Shown here in pieces: positions 4,531-30,477 of a stretch of 64,000 bases of DNA; the first letter of the stretch is position 1, and each line of letters starts with the position of its first letter. The notes below the pieces were generated by a model that saw only the letters and a program-made list of their open reading frames with translations, made no database searches and was not told the origin of the DNA. The stretch comes from Actinomycetota bacterium (GTDB lineage Bacteria > Actinomycetota > UBA4738 > HRBIN12). The position numbers and the translations under genes were made by a program. Location: assembly GCA_036374435.1 (NCBI GenBank), contig DASUTU010000030.1, positions 15,539 through 79,538 on the forward strand, written 5' to 3'.

Positions 4531-5679
4531 GTGGGGGGCCGGGCCGGGCTCGTGGTCAATCCCGAGGCCAAGATCTACGACCACGGTCCCGCCCACCCCC
4601 TCAGGCCCCAACGCGTCCTGTTCACGTGGGACCTGATCCGGGCGTGTGGCCTGCTCGAGCTGCCGCAGGTCCTCGAGCTCGGGGCCGAGGCCGCAGGCGA
4701 CGACCGGCTCGGCCTCGTGCACACCGAGGACTTCATCGAAGCCACCAGGCGTGCCGGGCACGGAGAAGCCGGGGAGTGGTGGCGGTACGGCTACGGCCCC
4801 GGCGACAACCCGATCTTCCCCCAGATGCACGAGGCGGGCGCGCTCGTTGCCGGCGCCACGCTCGCCGCGGCCGAGGCGGTCCACGAGGGCCGCGTGGACC
4901 ACGCGTTCAACGCCGCCGGCGGCCTGCACCACGCGATGCCGTCCCGGGCGTCGGGGTTCTGCGTGTACGACGACCCGGCCATCGCCATCGCCTGGCTGCT
5001 CGAGCGCGGCGTCCATCCGATCGCCTACGTCGACGTCGATGTGCATCACGGCGACGGCCCGCAGGCGATCTTCTACGATGATCCACGGGTGCTCACGATC
5101 TCGCTCCACGAGTCCGGCGAGTACCTGTTCCCCGGCAGCGGGTTCATCACCGAACGCGGCGACGGCCCGGGAGAAGGCACGAAGGTCAACGTCCCGTTCC
5201 ATCCCGGCACCACCGGACGGGCCTGGCTGGCCGCGTTCGAGTCGATCGTGCCCCCGTTGCTCCGGGCGTTCGGACCGCAGGTACTCGTGACCCAGCTCGG
5301 GGCGGACTCGCACGTCACCGATCCGCTGGCCCACCTGCGGCTCACGACCGATGTCTACCGGCAGGTGGCGTCGATGCTGCACGCGCTGGCCCACGAGGTG
5401 ACCGGCGGTCGGTGGATCGCCACCGGCGGCGGCGGGTACCAGTGGGCCACGGTGGTCCCGCGCGCCTGGACCCTGTCCTTCGCCGAGATGTGCGGCGCCG
5501 ACCTGCCCGACCACCTTCCCGAGGGCTGGATCGAGACGGTCGAGTTCGAGATCCGCGCCGAGGTCCCCGTGACGTTCTCGGACCCGCCGGTCGAAGGCGA
5601 CCACCTCGACGGCGAGACCGAAGCCACGATCGAGCTGGTGCGGAAGACCTGCTTCCCGTTCTTCGGGCTCGAGGCGTGA
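4531..5679 (+). CDS. Histone-deacetylase-family amidohydrolase (AcuC / acetylpolyamine amidohydrolase-like)
   Basis: Contains VDVDVHHGDG and SLHESGEYLFPGSG plus the Arg-binding-loop region of the HDAC/AcuC/Aph family. GTG at 4531 lies directly after the upstream TAG (alternative GTG at 4552). Confidence 0.75.
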   Translation: MGGRAGLVVNPEAKIYDHGPAHPLRPQRVLFTWDLIRACGLLELPQVLELGAEAAGDDRLGLVHTEDFIEATRRAGHGEAGEWWRYGYGPGDNPIFPQMHEAGALVAGATLAAAEAVHEGRVDHAFNAAGGLHHAMPSRASGFCVYDDPAIAIAWLLERGVHPIAYVDVDVHHGDGPQAIFYDDPRVLTISLHESGEYLFPGSGFITERGDGPGEGTKVNVPFHPGTTGRAWLAAFESIVPPLLRAFGPQVLVTQLGADSHVTDPLAHLRLTTDVYRQVASMLHALAHEVTGGRWIATGGGGYQWATVVPRAWTLSFAEMCGADLPDHLPEGWIETVEFEIRAEVPVTFSDPPVEGDHLDGETEATIELVRKTCFPFFGLEA

Positions 5680-7100
5680 ACCGGCGCGGGGTCAAGCTCG
5701 TCTGCACGTTGGGCCCGGCGACCGCCTCGCTCGAACGCGTCCGCGCGCTGGCCGAGGCCGGCTGCGAGGTGTTCCGGGTCAACCTGTCCCACGGCGACCG
5801 CGCCCAGTGGGACGAGCTGTTCTCCCTGGTCCGCTCCGTCTCCGAGGAGCGAGGGGACGACCTCGCCGTGTTGAGCGATCTGCCGGGGCCGAAGATCCGG
5901 CTGGGGCAGTTCGAAGCCGGAGAGGTCGAGCTCGAGGCCGGAGGCCGGTTCGAGCTCCGTCCCGACGTCGAATCGCCGGGCGACGCGACCGGGGCGGGGA
6001 CGACGTACGACGGTTTGGCCGCCGACGTCCGGCCCGGCGACCGCATCCTGCTCGCCGACGGCGCCGCCGAGCTGGTGGTGGCCTCGACGGACGGCTCGAT
6101 CGTGGTGAGCGAGGTGGTCCGGGCCGGACTGGTGCGTTCGGGCGGTGGCGTGAACGTGCCGGCCGAGCGGCTCGGGCTCCCCGCTGTCACCGAGCGCGAC
6201 CGAACGCGCCTGGCCGAGGCGCTCGGGCGCGGAGCCGACCTGGTGGCGCAGTCCTTCGTGCGGAACGCCGCCGATGTGGCCGAGCTCCGCGCGTTGATGG
6301 GGGAGCGAGCCGTGCCGATCGTCGCGAAGATCGAGACCCGACCGGCCGTGGAGGGCATCGAGGCCATCCTGCGGGAGGCGGACGCGATCATGGTGGCGAG
6401 GGGCGACCTCGGCGTCGAGCTGCCGATGGAAGAGATCCCGATCCTGCAGAAGGAGCTGTTGCAGGCGGCGCAGCGCGCATCGCGGCCGGTGATCGTCGCC
6501 ACCCAGATGCTCGAGTCGATGACGGCGGCCCCACGGCCCACCCGGGCCGAGGCCACCGATGTGGCGAACGCGGTGCTCGACGGCGCCGACGCCATCATGC
6601 TCTCGGCCGAGACCGCCATCGGCGCCTATCCGGTGGAGGCGGCGACCGCCGCCGTCCGGATCGCCGAGGTGGCCGGGGAGCGCGGCGCCGAGTTCCGCTC
6701 CCCACCCGCCTCGTGCACGCACGAAGACGAAGCCGGCGCCGTGGCGCACGCGGCCGCGAGGATCGCCGCCGCCGACCGCGACGTCGTCGCGATCACCTGC
6801 TACACGCAGACCGGCCGTACCGCGGCGCTGCTCTCGGCCGAACGCCCCTCGGTCCCGGTTTACGCGTTCGTTCCGAAGTCCGAGGTCCGCCGGGCGCTCG
6901 CATTGCGGTGGGGCGTCCATGCCCTTCGCGCGCGGATCCCAGACGACACCGACGAGATGATCGCGCTGATGGACGAGGGCCTGCGCGCCGAAGGGTTCGC
7001 CCGGGACGGCGACGCCGTCGTCATGGCCGCCTCCTCGCCCGCCGGGATCATGCGGACGAACATGCTCAAGGTGCACCACCTGGGCAGCGCGGTCCGCTGA
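5676..7100 (+). CDS. pyk: Pyruvate kinase
   Basis: VNRRGVKLVCTLGPATASLERVRALAEAGCEVFRVNLSHGD... is the canonical PK N-terminus. 474 aa; GTGA overlap with the upstream gene. Confidence 0.9.
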   Translation: MNRRGVKLVCTLGPATASLERVRALAEAGCEVFRVNLSHGDRAQWDELFSLVRSVSEERGDDLAVLSDLPGPKIRLGQFEAGEVELEAGGRFELRPDVESPGDATGAGTTYDGLAADVRPGDRILLADGAAELVVASTDGSIVVSEVVRAGLVRSGGGVNVPAERLGLPAVTERDRTRLAEALGRGADLVAQSFVRNAADVAELRALMGERAVPIVAKIETRPAVEGIEAILREADAIMVARGDLGVELPMEEIPILQKELLQAAQRASRPVIVATQMLESMTAAPRPTRAEATDVANAVLDGADAIMLSAETAIGAYPVEAATAAVRIAEVAGERGAEFRSPPASCTHEDEAGAVAHAAARIAAADRDVVAITCYTQTGRTAALLSAERPSVPVYAFVPKSEVRRALALRWGVHALRARIPDDTDEMIALMDEGLRAEGFARDGDAVVMAASSPAGIMRTNMLKVHHLGSAVR

Positions 7101-7112
7101 CGGTCGATCCGG

Positions 7113-7901
7113 TCAGGTCCTTCGCCGGGCCCGGGTGGTCACGGCGCCGAGACCCCATCGGTAGAGGGATGGCGTCAGCACTCGAAACGCCTGGAATGCG
7201 GCGAGCGTTCGAGGCACGGAGATCTCGGGCCCGCGGCCGCGGCGGACCACGTCTTCGATCGTCCTGGCGATCCGGTCGACGTCGACCAGGAGGGCGCGTG
7301 GGACGGCCACGCTCGGGAACCGTTCGGTCTTGGCGAACCCCGGGTTCACCGCCGTCACGAGTACGCCCTGCGGTTCCAGCTCGTGGAACAGCGCTTCGCT
7401 GAACGCCACCACACCGTGTTTGGTGGCCGAATACACCGCCGCGCCCGGGACGGCGTACCGGCCGGCCAGCGAGGCGACGTTCACCACGTGGCCCCGGCCG
7501 CGCTCGAGCATCTCGGGCAGGAACGCCTTGGTGACCAGCAGGACCGAGAGCAGGTTCACCCGCACCACGCGTTCGACCTCCTCGACCGAGACCGCCTCGA
7601 ACCGGCCGCCGCCGGGAATCCCCGCGTTGTTGACCAACACGTCGCAGCGGCCGAACGCCCCCAGCGTTGCCTCGACCAACGACGCGACGTCGGCGCCGTC
7701 CGTGACGTCGCATCGGACGGGCAGGGCCTCGCCGCCGCGAGTGCGGATTCGTTCCTCGAGCGACTCGAGCCGGTCGAGCCGGCGCGCCGCGAGCACCACC
7801 CGCGACCCCGCGCGGGCGAACCGCAAGGCCGTGGCCTCGCCGATCCCGGACGAGGCCCCGGTCACCACCACCACCGCGCCGCGAAGGTCCACGGGCCGCA
7901 A
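7113..7901 (-). CDS. Short-chain dehydrogenase/reductase (SDR)
   Basis: Has VVVTGASSGIG (Rossmann), NNAG, and the S...Y...K catalytic triad context (YSATK). Confidence 0.85.
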   Translation of the reverse strand: MRPVDLRGAVVVVTGASSGIGEATALRFARAGSRVVLAARRLDRLESLEERIRTRGGEALPVRCDVTDGADVASLVEATLGAFGRCDVLVNNAGIPGGGRFEAVSVEEVERVVRVNLLSVLLVTKAFLPEMLERGRGHVVNVASLAGRYAVPGAAVYSATKHGVVAFSEALFHELEPQGVLVTAVNPGFAKTERFPSVAVPRALLVDVDRIARTIEDVVRRGRGPEISVPRTLAAFQAFRVLTPSLYRWGLGAVTTRARRRT

Positions 7902-7924
7902 GCCTAGGCCACCGCTCTCGTACG

Positions 7925-8764
7925 ATGGAGGAACCGATGGACGTGGTCCGGTCTCATGCCGCCCGGCTTCCGGCGATCGACGATCGCTGGGAGCCTCGCC
8001 ACCACGACCGGGACGAGCTGATCCTGGGCCTGCTCGACGGACGGGTGGCGTTCGAGGAGGTCAGCCACCCGCTCGACAACGTCCTGCGCAACATCGGACT
8101 GCTGGTCGGTGGCGACCCCGACAAACAGTTCGGCCTGAGCGGCCTGAACGGCTTCTCGCGTCGCGAGATCCTCGAGCTGGTGGGGGCGGCGGCGGGGTTC
8201 GAGCCCGACCACTACGCCAGCACCGGGCCCGTGCCCGTGGATCCCGAGCGCGTGCTCCTGGCCTGCGAGCGGGTCGGGGACCGCATGGCCGAGGCGTGCC
8301 GCCGCGGTGAGCGGGTGATCTTCGCCACGGGCCACCCGGTCGGCCTCATCCACCTCTACACGGCGGTGGGGCGCGAGCTCCGGGCTCGCGGGGTCGAGCT
8401 GCTCACGCCGGCCGACGGCCTCACCTGGCACGACGACGAACGCGACCATCCCTGGCAGATCCGGTACCTCGAGGGGGTCGCGCTGCTCACCGACATCGCC
8501 AGCGCCCGCCACACGCACAGCCCGGACCCGATGCGACGGATGCTCGAGCTCGAGCGGCCGGACCTCGTGTTCGCCGACCACGGGTGGGCGGGAGCGGCCA
8601 TCGAGGACGGCGTCGACACCGTCTCGATCGCCGACGTGAACGACCCGGCGCTGGTCGTGGCGCAAGCCCAGGGACGGTCCGAGACCGTGATCGTCATGGA
8701 CGACAACGTCCGCCCGGAGGGTTACTGGCCCTGTTTCCAGGCGATCGTCTCCCGCCTGCCCTGA
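7925..8764 (+). CDS. Conserved hypothetical protein
   Basis: 279-aa ORF with good GC3 skew. The overlapping 588-aa antisense ORF is R/S/T/P-rich junk. No family recognised. Confidence 0.5.
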   Translation: MEEPMDVVRSHAARLPAIDDRWEPRHHDRDELILGLLDGRVAFEEVSHPLDNVLRNIGLLVGGDPDKQFGLSGLNGFSRREILELVGAAAGFEPDHYASTGPVPVDPERVLLACERVGDRMAEACRRGERVIFATGHPVGLIHLYTAVGRELRARGVELLTPADGLTWHDDERDHPWQIRYLEGVALLTDIASARHTHSPDPMRRMLELERPDLVFADHGWAGAAIEDGVDTVSIADVNDPALVVAQAQGRSETVIVMDDNVRPEGYWPCFQAIVSRLP

Positions 8765-8987
8765 GGAAGGTCCGCCGGACCCGATCCGCCCACCCCGGTA
8801 GGATGGCCCCGACGTGAACTCCACATCCGACCCCGAGGCACGGCTCGAACGCGTGAACAGGTTCAACTGGCGCGCACCCATCCACCTCGTGACCATCTCG
8901 ACGATCCCCCGGCGGAGGCATCCGGCAACCGGGTAGCCCGGCACGCGTGCGAACGGGCCTCCGAGGCCGACCAACCCGGAGGCGGAC

Positions 8988-9878
8988 GTGAACGAGTACG
9001 AAGCGCTCGTCGACCAGGCCGTGCGCACGAAGAACACCGTGATGCTCGTCGGCGGGCTCGACACCGGCAAGAGCACCCTGTCCCGGACGCTGCTCCAGGC
9101 GGCGGTGTCCGCCGGGCGCCGGGCGGCGTTCATCGACGCCGACGTCGGACAGAAGTCGGTGGGTCCGCCGGCGACGATCACGCTCAAGGCGACGGCCGCG
9201 GTGGCGGACCTTGAGCCGGAACGGTTCGCCGGCCAGGACGCGTTGGCCTTCGTCGGATCGACCTCCCCCGAGGGGCACCTCCTCCCGGTGCTCGCCGGCG
9301 TGGCCACCCTGCACCGCCGGGCGGTCGAGGAGAAGGCCGAGTTCGTCGTGGTGGACACCTCCGGCCTCGTGTCCGGCGTGCACGGGCAGATCCTCAAGTA
9401 CCACAAGGTCGAGCTTCTGCGGCCGGATCTGGTGGTCGGGCTCCAGCGGGGCGAGGAGCTCCTGCCGCTGTTGGGCGTGATCCAGCGGTTCTTCCCCACG
9501 GAGGTCGTGCCGATGGTTGTCCACCCCGGCGTCGTGCCGACCACGGTCGACCAGCGGGCCGAGAACCGGGAGATGGCGATGCGCCGGTACTTCGCCGGAG
9601 AGCTGCACCGCTTCCGGGTCAAGCCGACGGTGTTCATGCCGGCCCTGCCGCCGCTCTTCGACCTGGCCAACCTGCATCGGATCCTCGTGGGGCTCTCGGA
9701 CGGCGCCGGTGCCTACACGGGGCTTGGGTACCTCGAGCACGCTCCCGACGACGGCGTCCTGCGGCTCATCTCGCCCGTGGCAGCGGGGCCAAAGGCGCTT
9801 AGACTGGGGTCCGTCCGCCTCGAGAAGGACTTCCGCGCCAAGCGGGTCGACCTCCGGCATCTGTTCGGGTCGGAGTAA
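8988..9878 (+). CDS. Clp1/Grc3/Nol9-family P-loop NTPase (putative polynucleotide 5'-hydroxyl kinase) homologue
   Basis: Walker A VMLVGGLDTGKSTL is followed by FIDADVGQKSVGPPATI (Clp1 'clasp' DxGQ motif) and the Walker-B-like FVVVDTSGLV. This order and spacing match Clp1. Confidence 0.65.
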   Translation: MNEYEALVDQAVRTKNTVMLVGGLDTGKSTLSRTLLQAAVSAGRRAAFIDADVGQKSVGPPATITLKATAAVADLEPERFAGQDALAFVGSTSPEGHLLPVLAGVATLHRRAVEEKAEFVVVDTSGLVSGVHGQILKYHKVELLRPDLVVGLQRGEELLPLLGVIQRFFPTEVVPMVVHPGVVPTTVDQRAENREMAMRRYFAGELHRFRVKPTVFMPALPPLFDLANLHRILVGLSDGAGAYTGLGYLEHAPDDGVLRLISPVAAGPKALRLGSVRLEKDFRAKRVDLRHLFGSE

Positions 9879-9902
9879 ATCCAGACGACGGAGAGGAAAC
9901 GC

Positions 9903-10004
9903 GTGCCTTCGCTGATCAAGAAGCGCCGCAAGAAGATGCGGAAGAAGAAGCACAAGAAGCTTCTGAAGAAGACCCGCTGGCAGCGGCGCCAACAGGGCCG
10001 CTAG
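9903..10004 (+). CDS. 30S ribosomal protein bS22 (actinobacterial 33-aa basic protein)
   Basis: Not in the ORF track (too short). GTG start preceded by GGAGAGGAA. It encodes VPSLIKKRRKKMRKKKHKKLLKKTRWQRRQQGR, matching the conserved mycobacterial/streptomycete bS22 pattern (..IKKRRKRM.KKKHRKLLR.TR.QRR). Confidence 0.65.
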   Translation: MPSLIKKRRKKMRKKKHKKLLKKTRWQRRQQGR

Positions 10005-10017
10005 GCTCCGTCGCGCC

Positions 10018-10770
10018 ATGTGCGCGTCCCGCCGGCACGTGCTCCGTGAATCCCTCGCCATCCTCCTGGCCCTCTCGGTCCTGGGCGCCGCCTGTGGGGA
10101 CCAGGGGCCGTCGGTCGATCTCGCCGGCACCGAGCAGGTCATGTTCGAGGCCGACGACGGGATTCGGCTCGCCGGGCGACTGTTCGGGGACGGCGAGACG
10201 GCGGTGGTGCTGTCGCACATGCGTCCGGCAGACCAGTCGTCGTGGTTCCGGTTCGCCGATCGTCTGGCGGATGCCGGCTACCTGGTCTTGACCTACAACT
10301 TCCGCGGTTACTGCCCGGGCGGGGACGCCGGCTGTTCGGAGGGCGATCGCGACATCTCCGCCATCTGGCGCGACGTCGTGGGCGCGATCGGGTTCGTTCG
10401 CGCCCGCGGGGCCGCGTCGGTCTCGTTGGTGGGCGCGAGCATGGGCGGCACGGCCTCGCTGGTCGCGGCCGGGCGCGAAGGCGTCCGCGTCGACGCGGTC
10501 GTCACGCTCTCGGCCCCCGCGTCGATCGAGGGCCTCGTGGCCGACTCGGCTCTGCTGGTTCGGGTCGCGGCGGCGAAGTTGTTCATCGCGGGCGTGGGCG
10601 ACGCCCAGGCCGCACGAGACGCCGAGGCCATGTTCGAGCAGTCGCCCCAGCCCAAACGGGTCGAGATCCTGGGGTCCGACGATCACGGGACCGACCTGCT
10701 CACGGGTGGGCAGGGCGAGGTGGTTCGCCGCCTCATCGAGACGGTCCTGAGCCAGCAGGGCGGGCCGTAG
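10018..10770 (+). CDS. Secreted lipoprotein, alpha/beta-hydrolase fold
   Basis: Signal peptide with lipobox LGAAC, and nucleophile elbow GASMGG. Confidence 0.7.
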   Translation: MCASRRHVLRESLAILLALSVLGAACGDQGPSVDLAGTEQVMFEADDGIRLAGRLFGDGETAVVLSHMRPADQSSWFRFADRLADAGYLVLTYNFRGYCPGGDAGCSEGDRDISAIWRDVVGAIGFVRARGAASVSLVGASMGGTASLVAAGREGVRVDAVVTLSAPASIEGLVADSALLVRVAAAKLFIAGVGDAQAARDAEAMFEQSPQPKRVEILGSDDHGTDLLTGGQGEVVRRLIETVLSQQGGP

Positions 10771-10966
10771 GCCCGCGCGTTACGGGCTCCCGGTGACCGT
10801 CGGGAACGGCGTGCCTTCGGTCGGTCCGGGGAACCGATCGCCTCCGCGACCCGCCAGGACGATCTGGTAGACGGCCGCGCCGGTGAGCAAGGCGAACAGG
10901 CAGATCAGGGTGATCAGCGTCCACCTGCGCACGCCGGGAGGCTAACAGCGGGGCCGGAACGGCATC

Positions 10967-10994
10967 GGGGCGGGGTCCTCGCCGACCCCGCCCC
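10967..10994 (-). terminator. GC-rich hairpin (GGGGCGGGG-N10-CCCCGCCCC) just downstream of the S55 peptidase stop
   Basis: Perfect 9-bp inverted repeat 17 nt past the stop codon (complement 11011-11013). No U-tract, as is common in actinobacterial terminators. Confidence 0.35.
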
Positions 10995-11010
10995 AACCGT
11001 CCGTGCGCCG

Positions 11011-15205: not shown

Positions 15206-15768
15206 TCCTCCGCGGGAAGGGCGCGCCGCAGCTTGCGCATGGCGGCGAGCGTTCGCGTCTTGACCGTTCCGAGCGGGATCCCGAGGGCCTCGGCGATCCG
15301 ACTCTGTGTGTAGCCGCCGAAGTATGCCAGCTCGACCACCTGCCGCTGCTCGGCGGGGAGCGTCGTCAGGGCTTCCCGGACCTGCTTCCTGCGGATCGCG
15401 AGGTACGAACCCTCAACGACGTCGTCTGCAACATCTTCGCCACGAACGGGCTCGAGGTTCGAGGCTCGTTCCCCTCGCCGGCGCATCCGCTCCTCGCGCC
15501 GCACGGCGTCCACGGCCCGGTGGTGCACCAGCGACAGGAAGAACGATCGGAACGCCCCACGGGCCGGGTCGAACGCCTCGGGCGCCCGCCACATGGCGAG
15601 GAAGGCGTCCTGGACGACCTCCTGCGCCAGGGCCTCCTGCGCCGTGATCCGCAGCGCGAGCCCATACGCGGCGTCCCCGTATCGTCGGTAGAGCTCCTCG
15701 AACGCGTCCCGGTCGCCGGCGGACAGGCGCCGGTGCAGACCGAGGTCGTGGAGGTCGTCGTTCGACAC
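15202..15768 (-). CDS. ECF (sigma-70 family) RNA polymerase sigma factor
   Basis: Region 2 (AYGLALRITAQEALAQEVVQDAFLAMW) and region 4 (LAYFGGYTQSRIAEALGIPLGTVKTR). Confidence 0.85.
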   Translation of the reverse strand: MSNDDLHDLGLHRRLSAGDRDAFEELYRRYGDAAYGLALRITAQEALAQEVVQDAFLAMWRAPEAFDPARGAFRSFFLSLVHHRAVDAVRREERMRRRGERASNLEPVRGEDVADDVVEGSYLAIRRKQVREALTTLPAEQRQVVELAYFGGYTQSRIAEALGIPLGTVKTRTLAAMRKLRRALPAEE

Positions 15769-28558: not shown

Positions 28559-30388
28559 CTAGGCGAGCCCGCCCGTCGGCACGATCGCGTCGACGGCCAC
28601 CGAGGCGAACAGCAGCCCGAGATAGGCGATCGAGAACCGGAACAGGTGGACCGGCTCGGCCGGGGACGCCTCGCGCCACAGCCGGAGGGCGCGCCACACG
28701 AACCAGCCCCCCAGGACGAGCGCCGTGGCCGCGTAGACCGGGCCCATGTGCCCGACCGGGATCAAGACCAGCGAGGCCGCGAACAGGACCAGCGAGTAGA
28801 GCAGGATTTGGCGGCGGGTCTCCTCGGGGCCGCGGACCACCGGGAGCATCGGGACCCCCGCGGCCGCGTAGTCGCCCTGGTAGCGCATGGCCAGCGCCCA
28901 GAAATGCGGCGGGGTCCACACGAACACGATCGCGAACAGCACCCAAGCCGGCGGCCCCACGGTGCCGGTGACGGCGGCCCACCCGACCAGTGCGGGGACC
29001 GCCCCAGCCGCGCCGCCGATGACGATGTTCTGCACGCTGGTTCGCTTCAGCCACAAGGTGTACACGAAGACGTAGAAGGCGATCGCGGACAGCGCCAGCG
29101 AGGCCGCCAGCATGTTCACGGCGATCGCGAGGAAGAAGAACGAGACCGCGCCGAGCATGTACCCGAAGGCGAGAGCGCGTTCGGGCGCGATGCGGTGCGC
29201 CGGCAGGGGGCGCCGCCTCGTCCGGCGCATCACCTCGTCGATGTCCCGGTCGAGGTAGCAGTTGATGGCGTTCGCGGAGCCGGCAGCCATGGCCCCGCCG
29301 AGCAGCGTCGCGCCCACCAGCCACAGGGAGGGCATCCGACGCTCGGCCAGGACCATCGCCGGGACCGTCGTGATCAGCAGCAGCTCGATGATGCGCGGCT
29401 TGGTGAGCTGGACGTAGGCGGCGGTGGTCTCGCGGAGCGATCCGCGTCTGCCGTTCCCGCCGACGCCGGCGCGATCCGCCCGCATTCGGCCTCGGGCGAG
29501 GGCCCGGCCGAGCGTGGCCACCACCATCAGGACCGCCCAGATCGCGCCGGAGAACGCCACGTGCGCCGTGACGGCGGCCGCGCTCAGCTCGGACCAGACG
29601 TTGGCCGCCCCGACGAGGATCTGCCCCGCGAACAGGACGAGCGCAATCGTCGTCAGGACCACCAGAGCGGGCGAGCGCACCGGAGACGTGCGTGCCCGGA
29701 TCGCGAGCCAGAGCACCAGCACGAGCGCGAGCGCCGCCAACACCCGGTGGACGAACATCAGCGTTGCCGCGCCTCCGAGGGTGGGCACCAGCCGACCGTC
29801 CATCAGCGGCCAGTCCCGAAACGCCAGTCCCGCCCCCTCGGCCCGGACGTACGCCCCCACCACGAGGAGCGCCCCCACCGCGGCGGCGGTCCCCAGGGCG
29901 AGGCGAGCGAGGGCCGGATCCGCTCCTGCCGGCGGCTCGTCGCCACCTCGGTGCGGCTCGAACCGGAAGGTGTTCGCGGCGACCACGGTCACCACGGCGA
30001 CCAGGGCCATGGCGGTCGCGAAGTGCAGCGCCACCACGGTGGCCTCCAGGCCGCCCTCGACGACCACGCCGCCCAGCCCGGCCTGGACGAGGACGACGCC
30101 CACGGCGGCGACGGCCGGGCCGACGATTGCGGGCTGGTGTCGCAGCCGGCGCCAGGCCATCACGGCCTGCAACGCCACGAGCACCACCACGATGCTGGCG
30201 AGCAGGCGGTGCGCGTATTCGATGACCGCGTGGTACTCGAGCGGCGGGATCCATCGCCCGTAGCAGGTGGGCCAGCCCGGGCACCCCAGCCCCGACGCGG
30301 TCGCCCGGACGAGGCCCCCTACCGCCACCAGCAGCAACGTCGAAGCCGTCGTGGTGATCGCGAGCTTCTGGAAGCGGGTCATCGGCAT
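28559..30388 (-). CDS. ctaA-ctaB: Fused heme A synthase (CtaA, N-terminal) and heme O synthase / protoheme IX farnesyltransferase (CtaB, C-terminal)
   Basis: A single uninterrupted ORF. The N-terminal half has GCPGWPTCYG and His pairs (CtaA). The C-terminal half has YVQLTKPRIIELLLITT..DRDIDEVMRRTRRRPLP (UbiA-type CtaB). Start taken at MPMTRFQKL; the listed M is 19 codons upstream. Confidence 0.8.
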   Translation of the reverse strand: MPMTRFQKLAITTTASTLLLVAVGGLVRATASGLGCPGWPTCYGRWIPPLEYHAVIEYAHRLLASIVVVLVALQAVMAWRRLRHQPAIVGPAVAAVGVVLVQAGLGGVVVEGGLEATVVALHFATAMALVAVVTVVAANTFRFEPHRGGDEPPAGADPALARLALGTAAAVGALLVVGAYVRAEGAGLAFRDWPLMDGRLVPTLGGAATLMFVHRVLAALALVLVLWLAIRARTSPVRSPALVVLTTIALVLFAGQILVGAANVWSELSAAAVTAHVAFSGAIWAVLMVVATLGRALARGRMRADRAGVGGNGRRGSLRETTAAYVQLTKPRIIELLLITTVPAMVLAERRMPSLWLVGATLLGGAMAAGSANAINCYLDRDIDEVMRRTRRRPLPAHRIAPERALAFGYMLGAVSFFFLAIAVNMLAASLALSAIAFYVFVYTLWLKRTSVQNIVIGGAAGAVPALVGWAAVTGTVGPPAWVLFAIVFVWTPPHFWALAMRYQGDYAAAGVPMLPVVRGPEETRRQILLYSLVLFAASLVLIPVGHMGPVYAATALVLGGWFVWRALRLWREASPAEPVHLFRFSIAYLGLLFASVAVDAIVPTGGLA

Positions 30389-30405
30389 CGGAGGTCGGCG
30401 CCCGT

Positions 30406-30423
30406 GAACGATAGCAGTCGTTC
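30406..30423. promoter_or_regulatory. Perfect palindrome GAACGA-tagcag-TCGTTC in the ctaAB / polyprenyl-synthase divergent region
   Basis: 18-bp inverted repeat 18 nt upstream of the proposed ctaA-ctaB start and 55 nt upstream of the divergent gene. Confidence 0.35.
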
Positions 30424-30477
30424 CCCCGCGGGCCGATCCCCACACCGGCCGGCGACCCGTCTTGCGATACTCCTCCG

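Follow-up and report, generated by a model that had tools for sequence, protein, structure and literature searches.

In eukaryotes Clp1-type polynucleotide kinases have key parts in tRNA splicing, in mRNA 3′-end formation and, as Grc3/Nol9, in pre-rRNA processing. They are typical of eukaryotes and archaea and uncommon in Bacteria, where a published survey covering 1543 species found Clp1 in 14 of them and in none of 244 Actinobacteria (the latter in a supplementary table; Saito 2019, PMC6777427). The same study showed that the short Clp1 of Thermus scotoductus (Ts-Clp1) phosphorylates 5′-hydroxyl (5′-OH) RNA in vitro, which makes it the only bacterial member with demonstrated RNA 5′-OH kinase activity, that bacterial Clp1 proteins are without the archaeal C-domain and that the bacterial members were first annotated as GTPases; no gene context was reported for Ts-Clp1 (Saito 2019, PMC6777427). 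Here we describe a Clp1/Grc3-family gene in a 64,000-nt stretch of DNA from an Actinomycetota bacterium (GenBank assembly GCA_036374435.1, contig DASUTU010000030.1, forward-strand positions 15,539 to 79,538), the whole of which we call the window and whose own numbering is used throughout. A preliminary account made from the letters alone (the sequence-only reading) had proposed a Clp1-type kinase here, followed by the gene of the tiny ribosomal protein bS22, and had remarked on the rarity of such enzymes in Bacteria, with which the survey figures agree. Our analysis confirms the family assignment and shows that the kinase and bS22 genes form a fixed pair within a block of genes common to the window's clade and the Streptosporangiales.

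By both sequence and fold the 296-aa product is a member of the Clp1/Grc3/Nol9 family. Pfam CLP1_P (PF16575) matches it with an E-value of 4.4e-36 and a score of 124.9 bits against a cut-off of 26.6, residues 22-204 covering positions 1-188 of the 188 in the model, and all other P-loop families in the Pfam scan scored E >= 1e-4, so that a placement among MobB- or ArgK-type proteins fails. Among PDB sequences human Clp1 (7e-14) matches best and C. elegans Clp1 (9e-10) next, with NOL9 and GRC3 after them, and in the AlphaFold model, for which the predicted local distance difference test (pLDDT) lies between 80 and 95 over the kinase domain, the fold of that domain is nearer to Clp1/Grc3 than to other P-loop families. 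The exact protein is already named polynucleotide 5′-hydroxyl-kinase at NCBI, close relatives carry the names "Clp1/GlmU family protein" or "GRC3/NOL9" (JGI), and the family is broad in metagenomes, with 2158 clusters (50% identity) at E <= 1e-3.

With a view to judging the catalytic residues we took the motif definitions of Pillon 2018 (PMC5900568), in which Walker B is [D/E]hhQ and supplies the catalytic Asp and an RNA-contacting Gln while the clasp is [T/S/L]xGW, and followed each motif through an alignment of 33 homologues reaching down to 28% identity. The P-loop GxxxxGK[T/S] reads G22-LDTG-K28-S29, with G22, G27 and K28 invariant. Walker B is D52-V-G-Q55 and aligns with LDVGQ of human Clp1, D52 being invariant and Q55 at least 90% conserved, the lid RxxxR is formed by R190 and R194, both of them invariant, and the clasp T124-S-G126-L127, in which T and G are conserved, aligns with NTCGW of the human protein. 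The three peptides quoted in the sequence-only reading (GGLDTGKST, residues 21-29; FIDADVGQ, 48-55; VVVDTSGLV, 120-128) are all present, but it had the labels of the last two swapped, since DADVGQ is the Walker B and DTSGL the clasp.

The Pfam scan of the 296-aa protein found neither the N-terminal nor the C-terminal Clp1 domain and the kinase domain begins at residue 1. In this it is like Ts-Clp1, a short bacterial form of the same Pfam family that amounts to roughly the Clp1 kinase domain alone and likewise has no eukaryotic or archaeal N- and C-terminal Clp1 domains. Set against Ts-Clp1 by description, it differs in coming from another phylum and in its length (296 aa against ~240), having an additional C-terminal domain of about 90 aa. 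With eukaryotic Clp1 (human and C. elegans; PDB 8hmy, 4ohv) and Grc3/Nol9 (8puw, 7y17, 9dun) it shares the P-loop, the D..Q of Walker B, the lid RxxxR and the order of the motifs, whereas identity is about 21% or less over the aligned domain, the flanking Clp1 domains are missing, the clasp Trp is replaced by Leu and there are no Las1, Pcf11 or TSEN partners.

The open reading frames (ORFs) on which the sequence-only reading was built were all found on the plus strand where it had placed them (7925-8764, 279 aa; 8988-9878, 296 aa; 9903-10004, 33 aa). Their GC content at third codon positions (GC3) is 0.91-0.93 in a window of 70% GC, and for each of them synonymous differences from relatives outnumber non-synonymous ones; they are real genes under purifying selection. 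The last encodes MPSLIKKRRKKMRKKKHKKLLKKTRWQRRQQGR, a product of 33 aa of which about 19 are K or R, and it matches NCBIfam ribo_bS22 (NF047430) at E 1.8e-13 with 50.4 bits against a cut-off of 34, and Pfam COX24_C at E 1.1e-8. The spacer that separates it from the kinase gene is 24 nt long (9879-9902) and contains a Shine-Dalgarno (SD) sequence, GGAGAGGA.

In a scan using one genome per species we found 348 pattern-matched genomes with a relative and analysed the best 80 (59-90% identity), almost all of which are labelled as uncultured Actinomycetota or Actinomycetes metagenome-assembled genomes (MAGs). A bS22 gene lies downstream of the kinase on the same strand in all 75 of the loci with enough downstream sequence, with a median spacer of 19 nt (59 spacers are of 30 nt or less), and these bS22 copies are 79-97% identical to that of the window. 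In 77 loci the kinase-bS22 spacer has a stretch of purines that resembles an SD. On the other side, 66 of the 67 loci with enough upstream sequence have a co-oriented gene of Pfam family PF15698 before the kinase. The arrangement reaches beyond close relatives, as in five metagenome loci where the kinase is only 43-48% identical bS22 is still directly downstream, with a gene of the HTH_17 family directly upstream in three of the five. The pairing noticed in one genome by the sequence-only reading is thus constant among relatives, and its further suggestion of co-transcription fits the tight spacing, the conservation of that spacing and the SD, from which we infer a single transcript. Two loci deserve a separate remark. 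One (L007) is a 2.2-kb contig (JBHGAT010000373.1) with an actinobacterial kinase-bS22 pair (79% identical); the MAG to which it is assigned bears the name 'Candidatus Velamenicoccus archaeovorus', a placement which is probably a binning error. In the other (L074) a 590-nt insert with an ORF parts the kinase from bS22.

Two conserved features in the spacer upstream of the kinase (8765-8987) bear on how the pair may be expressed. One is a -10-like hexamer, TAGGAT, whose T, A, A and T columns are conserved at 0.7-0.9 across 68 aligned spacers; this conservation is the basis on which we regard it as the putative promoter of a unit made up of an HTH remnant, the kinase and bS22. Its position 9 nt before a GTG or TTG codon suggests a leaderless or near-leaderless start. 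A generic sigma-70 promoter scan of positions 7000-11000 returned none. The other feature is a hairpin whose second arm contains the SD of the kinase, GGAGG (8978-8982), 5 nt before the GTG at 8988. The minimum free energy fold pairs the SD region in 74 of 74 distinct loci, both arms co-vary in distant loci (CCUCUC/GAGAGG, CCCCUC/GAGGGG, CUCCCCC/GGGGGCG) and the longest stem that includes the SD has a mean of 7.3 bp compared with 4.9 in shuffled sequences.

Between the hexamer and the hairpin the window has the remains of a gene of the excisionase-type HTH_17 family. Of the 80 loci 15 keep this gene whole in the corresponding place, and in the subclade of the window it has decayed. Here the peptide PEARLERV (PEARFERV in most related loci) corresponds to (T/R)EARF(L/V)TV at the N-terminus of the intact protein. 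A nucleotide core within it, GAGGCACGG(C/T)TCGAACGCGTGAAC, is an imperfect palindrome that is nearly invariant, wobble positions included, and that survives frame-shifting indels in L028 and L033, which argues for a DNA or RNA signal and not a peptide; the palindrome suggests an operator or an RNA element. As a conserved small protein the 40-aa ORF was ruled out, since its reading frame shifts from locus to locus with respect to that of the kinase, L024 and L029 have shortened versions and the core tolerates indels.

Taken with the family's known chemistry these features lead us to favour, at a probability of roughly 60%, a reading in which the protein is an RNA 5′-OH kinase that is expressed with bS22, is translated sparingly and supplies 5′-phosphate ends for RNA decay, trimming or ligation. 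Ends with a 5′-OH are left by metal-independent endoribonucleases, toxins and ribozymes, and 5′-monophosphate ends are required by 5′-P-dependent RNases (RNase J, RNase E) or ligases; the kinase would turn the former into the latter. Using ATP, or another NTP, and Mg2+ it would place a phosphate on the 5′-OH of RNA, with DNA as a poorer substrate. If it works as Clp1 and Grc3 do, the NTP would be held by the P-loop (G22-S29), D52 of Walker B would serve as the catalytic base, Q55 would contact the first phosphodiester, the terminal nucleotides would pack against the TSGL clasp and the transition state would be stabilised by R190 and R194 of the lid. The kinase and bS22 would be carried on one transcript from a promoter within the 223-nt spacer 3′ of the PF15698 gene, presumably at TAGGAT, and with the ribosome binding site of the kinase hidden in the hairpin little kinase would be translated from a message that has to yield bS22 in quantity. 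A ribosome-associated or an RNA repair role, both raised by the sequence-only reading, may be played by the kinase.

A number of observations weigh against this picture. At the position of the clasp Trp the protein has Leu; nearly all of the 33 bacterial relatives aligned have L, F, M or Y there and none has Trp, and in Grc3 the W364A substitution abolishes kinase activity in vitro, growth being only moderately affected (Pillon 2018, PMC5900568). Residues 205-296 are poorly modelled (pLDDT < 55) and match no known domain. The argument for co-transcription draws entirely on spacing and conservation, and in a set of more distant loci (L066, L070, L072-L075, L077, L080 and L081) the kinase-bS22 spacer grows to 40-104 nt and a -10-like box, TAGACT or TAAACT, overlaps or follows the stop codon of the kinase, so that bS22 may there have a promoter of its own and the pair need not be on a single mRNA in every case. 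Shuffled GC-rich sequence folds with energies as good as that of the hairpin (z = -0.54), which leaves conservation and covariation as the support for the hairpin. Lastly the gene order itself could be largely inherited synteny, a matter on which the wider history of the block is informative.

Table 1. Positions of the features discussed, in window numbering except for the last row, where each locus has its own.
Feature	Position	Strand	Remarks
PF15698 'Phosphatase' family protein, 275 aa	7937..8764	+	Pfam; alternative start at 7925 gives 279 aa; divergent from SDR gene 7113-7901(-)
-10-like hexamer TAGGAT (putative promoter)	8799..8804	+	conserved in the PF15698-kinase spacer; 9 nt before GTG 8814
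HTH_17 gene remnant, 40-aa ORF	8814..8936	+	N-terminal PEARLERV; conserved core GAGGCACGGCTCGAACGCGTGAAC at ~8836-8858
Hairpin over kinase SD	8957..8983	+	GCCUCCG 8957-8963 pairs with CGGAGGC 8977-8983
Clp1/Grc3-family polynucleotide 5′-hydroxyl kinase, short bacterial form, 296 aa	8988..9878	+	kinase domain residues 1-204, then ~90-aa C-terminal domain to which no fold is assigned
bS22 Shine-Dalgarno GGAGAGGA	9890..9897	+	read from the sequence; 6 nt before GTG
Ribosomal protein bS22, 33 aa	9903..10004	+	GTG start; NCBIfam ribo_bS22
Clp1-RtcA loci	L089 6785-7825; L090 4854-5921; L091 999-2081; L095 6860-7888; L100 2517-3584		short Clp1 then RtcA

The window has an HDAC gene (4570-5679) upstream of the PF15698, kinase and bS22 genes and an alpha/beta-hydrolase gene downstream. 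In more distant loci the downstream alpha/beta-hydrolase and S55 peptidase genes are lost and the trio is kept, and in L088, where the kinase is 44% identical, the order is PF15698, an M29-like gene, HTH_17, kinase, bS22, SAM hydroxide adenosyltransferase and epimerase. A similar block occurs in cultured actinomycetes. In Nonomuraea gerenzanensis (L083, 6782-10581) it runs HDAC, PF15698, HTH_17, a bS22 of 32 aa (76% identical to that of the window) and NAD-epimerase, with no kinase between them, and Planobispora rosea and Thermoactinospora rubra (L144, 2841-6724, and L145, 2775-6592) keep this order, also with a 32-aa bS22, followed by an acyltransferase, again with no Clp1 gene, the Planobispora block continuing with an alpha/beta-hydrolase. 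A tblastn search of the kinase against a phage-free 'plasmids' collection that includes the 11.85-Mb Nonomuraea gerenzanensis record gave no match. That record (PLSDB NZ_LT559118.1) and a second one of 5.73 Mb from Embleya sp. (NZ_CP108785.1) are chromosomes or chromosome-sized replicons and are almost unannotated; they served as actinomycete references.

We take this type of bS22 locus to be that of Rv0500A-Rv0500B-Rv0501 (HTH_17, bS22, epimerase) in M. tuberculosis. The actinomycete loci have HDAC, PF15698, HTH_17 and bS22 followed by an epimerase or an alpha/beta-hydrolase, and the window's clade differs from them in that the Clp1 kinase fills the slot between HTH_17 and bS22, the HTH gene of the window itself being reduced to its remnant. 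Either the kinase gene entered this slot in the uncultured lineages, or the cultured lineages have lost it. As PF15698 and bS22 lie near each other also in genomes free of the kinase, part of the linkage is inherited synteny, and the occurrence of the block without the kinase in Streptosporangiales weakens the idea that PF15698 and the kinase need one another, leaving the kinase-bS22 pairing as the specific conserved feature.

The protein encoded upstream, which the sequence-only reading had called uncharacterised, turned out to belong to a named family, matching PF15698 ('Phosphatase') at E 1.1e-59 with 202.1 bits against a cut-off of 28.4; NCBI likewise names it 'phosphatase'. Translation more probably begins at the ATG at 7937, with a GGAGG 5 nt before it, and NCBI places the start there too. 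The AlphaFold2 model (pLDDT 94.2) has a helical N-terminal part and an alpha/beta domain, and the residues that are invariant among 18 sequences of 37-100% identity (T131-G-H-P, H192-T-H194, D214-H-G, D233-x-N-D-P and D255-D256) place clusters of His and Asp at the C-terminal ends of beta strands, a pattern typical of metal-dependent phosphoesterases. A Foldseek search with the model returned chains of ribosomal protein uS2 at nearly all of the first 48 ranks, with a best E-value of 1.2e-4 and TM-scores of only 0.3-0.5, and the fold resembles uS2, SIS and DHH domains and is unlike the phosphatases found in known Pnkp enzymes, which are of HAD or calcineurin type. By sequence the protein matched nothing in the PDB at E <= 10, either as a single sequence or as a HMMER profile, the Pfam scan of it found no Ribosomal_S2 domain and all of the fetched loci were without rpsB. 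Homology to uS2 found no support in sequence comparison, with hhalign giving a non-significant probability of 0.5% (E 0.11) against E. coli uS2 (a sequence 100% identical to the PDB chains) and aligning a single stretch, PDLVFADHG..AGAAIE.GV.TVSIADVND. We therefore treat the likeness in the models as one of fold, with homology unproven. A literature search on PF15698, SCO2771 and Rv0499 found no experiment behind the name 'phosphatase'. With uS2 as its nearest solved fold and bS22 constantly nearby, the PF15698 protein, whose family is widespread in actinobacteria, is a candidate for a ribosome-related function; such a role, if true, would tie an ancient enzyme fold to a ribosomal protein of universal occurrence. 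Next to the gene itself, the start codons of the PF15698 and the divergent SDR genes are some 23-35 nt apart and TACGAT (7921-7926) lies just 5′ of the PF15698 start; either the control region of this pair is very compact or the transcripts are leaderless.

Short Clp1 genes of other bacteria have a different partner. Among 44 more distant metagenome loci five short Clp1 homologues (28-33% identical) are directly followed by RtcA, the RNA 3′-phosphate cyclase, and this position directly 3′ of a short bacterial Clp1 ties the family to RNA-end chemistry. The two genes have the look of a unit that recurs. Our literature search found no description of a Clp1-RtcA operon, though an earlier mention of a Clp1-RtcA or a Clp1-PF15698 linkage may exist. 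In two of the five loci (L095 and L100) a nitroreductase gene lies upstream of the pair.

The constant neighbourhood of the kinase and PF15698 invites a reading in which they are the two halves of a split end-healing pair comparable to the halves of T4 Pnkp, the kinase phosphorylating the 5′-OH and PF15698 removing the 2′,3′-cyclic or 3′-phosphate, so that a ligase encoded elsewhere could reseal tRNA or rRNA cut by ribotoxins. The near-invariable order of the two genes, kept also in the 44%-identical L088, speaks for it, as do the His/Asp clusters, the label 'phosphatase' at both Pfam and NCBI and the association of other bacterial Clp1 genes with an RNA 3′-end enzyme, and a 5′-kinase gene adjoining a gene so named has the syntax of the end-healing modules of T4 Pnkp and bacterial Pnkp/Hen1. 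We nevertheless consider it unlikely, if worth keeping in view. PF15698 holds the same position by HTH_17 and bS22 in Nonomuraea, Planobispora and Thermoactinospora with no kinase at the locus, and the entire 11.85-Mb Nonomuraea record is without a Clp1 homologue, from which PF15698 would appear to be independent of the kinase. The kinase is of the Clp1 and not the T4-Pnk type, the genes are separate and have a conserved promoter-like box between them, to which 15 loci add a complete HTH gene, the 'phosphatase' is neither HAD nor calcineurin-like in fold and its name is one for which we found no experiment, and the called ORFs scanned across the 64-kb window include no ligase, Hen1, toxin or mobile element. 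That the protein might not be a kinase at all, having kept the Clp1 fold as a P-loop NTPase and lost RNA kinase activity to become a GTPase or ATPase switch, seems to us very improbable. The absent clasp Trp and a C-terminal domain unlike that of eukaryotic Clp1 would suit such a switch. Against it, the bacterial group as a whole conserves the Walker B Gln and the lid Arg residues, which serve RNA phosphorylation and not plain NTP hydrolysis. S. cerevisiae Clp1, which no longer has kinase activity, retains the fold without these motifs. GTPase was the original annotation of bacterial members, but Ts-Clp1, itself one of the short bacterial proteins, has RNA kinase activity (Saito 2019, PMC6777427).

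The link to bS22 can be given more weight than our preferred reading of a sparingly made RNA end kinase gives it. The kinase would then be a ribosome maturation factor acting on pre-rRNA 5′-OH ends, as Grc3/Nol9 does after cleavage by Las1, and licensing 5′-3′ trimming by RNase J during 30S assembly in concert with bS22 and perhaps also the PF15698 protein with its uS2-like fold. A ribosomal protein gene is indeed invariably linked to the kinase at kinase identities from 43% to 90%, and Pfam profiles of two families of small-subunit maturation, the RsgA GTPase (2 ORFs) and the rRNA adenine dimethylase RrnaAD (3 ORFs), occur among the neighbours of distant Clp1 genes, but the single RrnaAD match that was inspected was a secondary match of a PCMT methyltransferase. 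Most Actinomycetota have bS22 without the kinase, to judge by the survey in which it was found in 0 of 244 genomes (Saito 2019, PMC6777427) and by the Streptosporangiales loci. No Las1-like nuclease was seen, the likeness to uS2 is at the level of fold, with nothing from HMMER and 0.5% from hhalign, and the gene order of the block is old and may be devoid of functional meaning, so that we hold this role to be rather improbable. A broader version is likewise rather improbable, namely that deep-branching Actinomycetota have a bacterial counterpart of Grc3/Nol9, in which kinase made from the bS22 mRNA would phosphorylate 16S/23S precursors or damaged rRNA for trimming by RNase J, PF15698 would be either a metal-binding enzyme descended from uS2 or a mimic of uS2 on the small subunit and the whole PF15698/HTH/kinase/bS22 block would be a module for small-subunit maturation or quality control.

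The enzyme family, the precedent of a bacterial RNA kinase (Saito 2019) and the automatic annotation of this protein are already known. Within the literature that we could search, the fixed kinase-bS22 operon and its place in an old actinobacterial block appear to be unreported, as do the Clp1-RtcA pairing in other bacteria and the uS2-like fold of PF15698; our search found no paper with both bS22 and a polynucleotide kinase. A clade of uncultured Actinomycetota, represented by at least 80 species-level genomes, thus carries a Clp1 kinase that the published survey of Actinobacteria found in none (Saito 2019), and two testable contexts for bacterial Clp1 enzymes emerge, one in the healing of RNA ends and one in expression linked to the ribosome.

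Respiratory and housekeeping genes surround the locus, which belongs to the housekeeping DNA of the chromosome. Other products among the ORFs scanned in the window include an aminotransferase, a CoA-transferase, HDAC, pyruvate kinase, the SDR and an ECF sigma/anti-sigma pair, together with Rex, cytochrome bc1, cytochrome c oxidase, haem A and haem O synthases, complex I and polyprenyl synthases. Against the PADLOC defence models the kinase gave only P-loop-level matches (E 0.002-0.008) and the PF15698 protein none, and an Rfam scan of the whole window at gathering thresholds gave zero RNA families. Two terminator-like matches fall on the minus strand within bS22 and are no more than chance expects. 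The antisense ORFs 7904-9670 and 8694-10220 are artefacts of high-GC composition and not genes; the former was favoured by a simple GC3 gene caller and was overruled by homology and by the GC3 of 0.92-0.93 of the sense ORFs. Elsewhere in the window a single 628-aa ORF (28559-30445, minus strand) carries both COX15/CtaA (haem A synthase) and UbiA/CtaB (haem O synthase) domains and is an apparent fusion protein.

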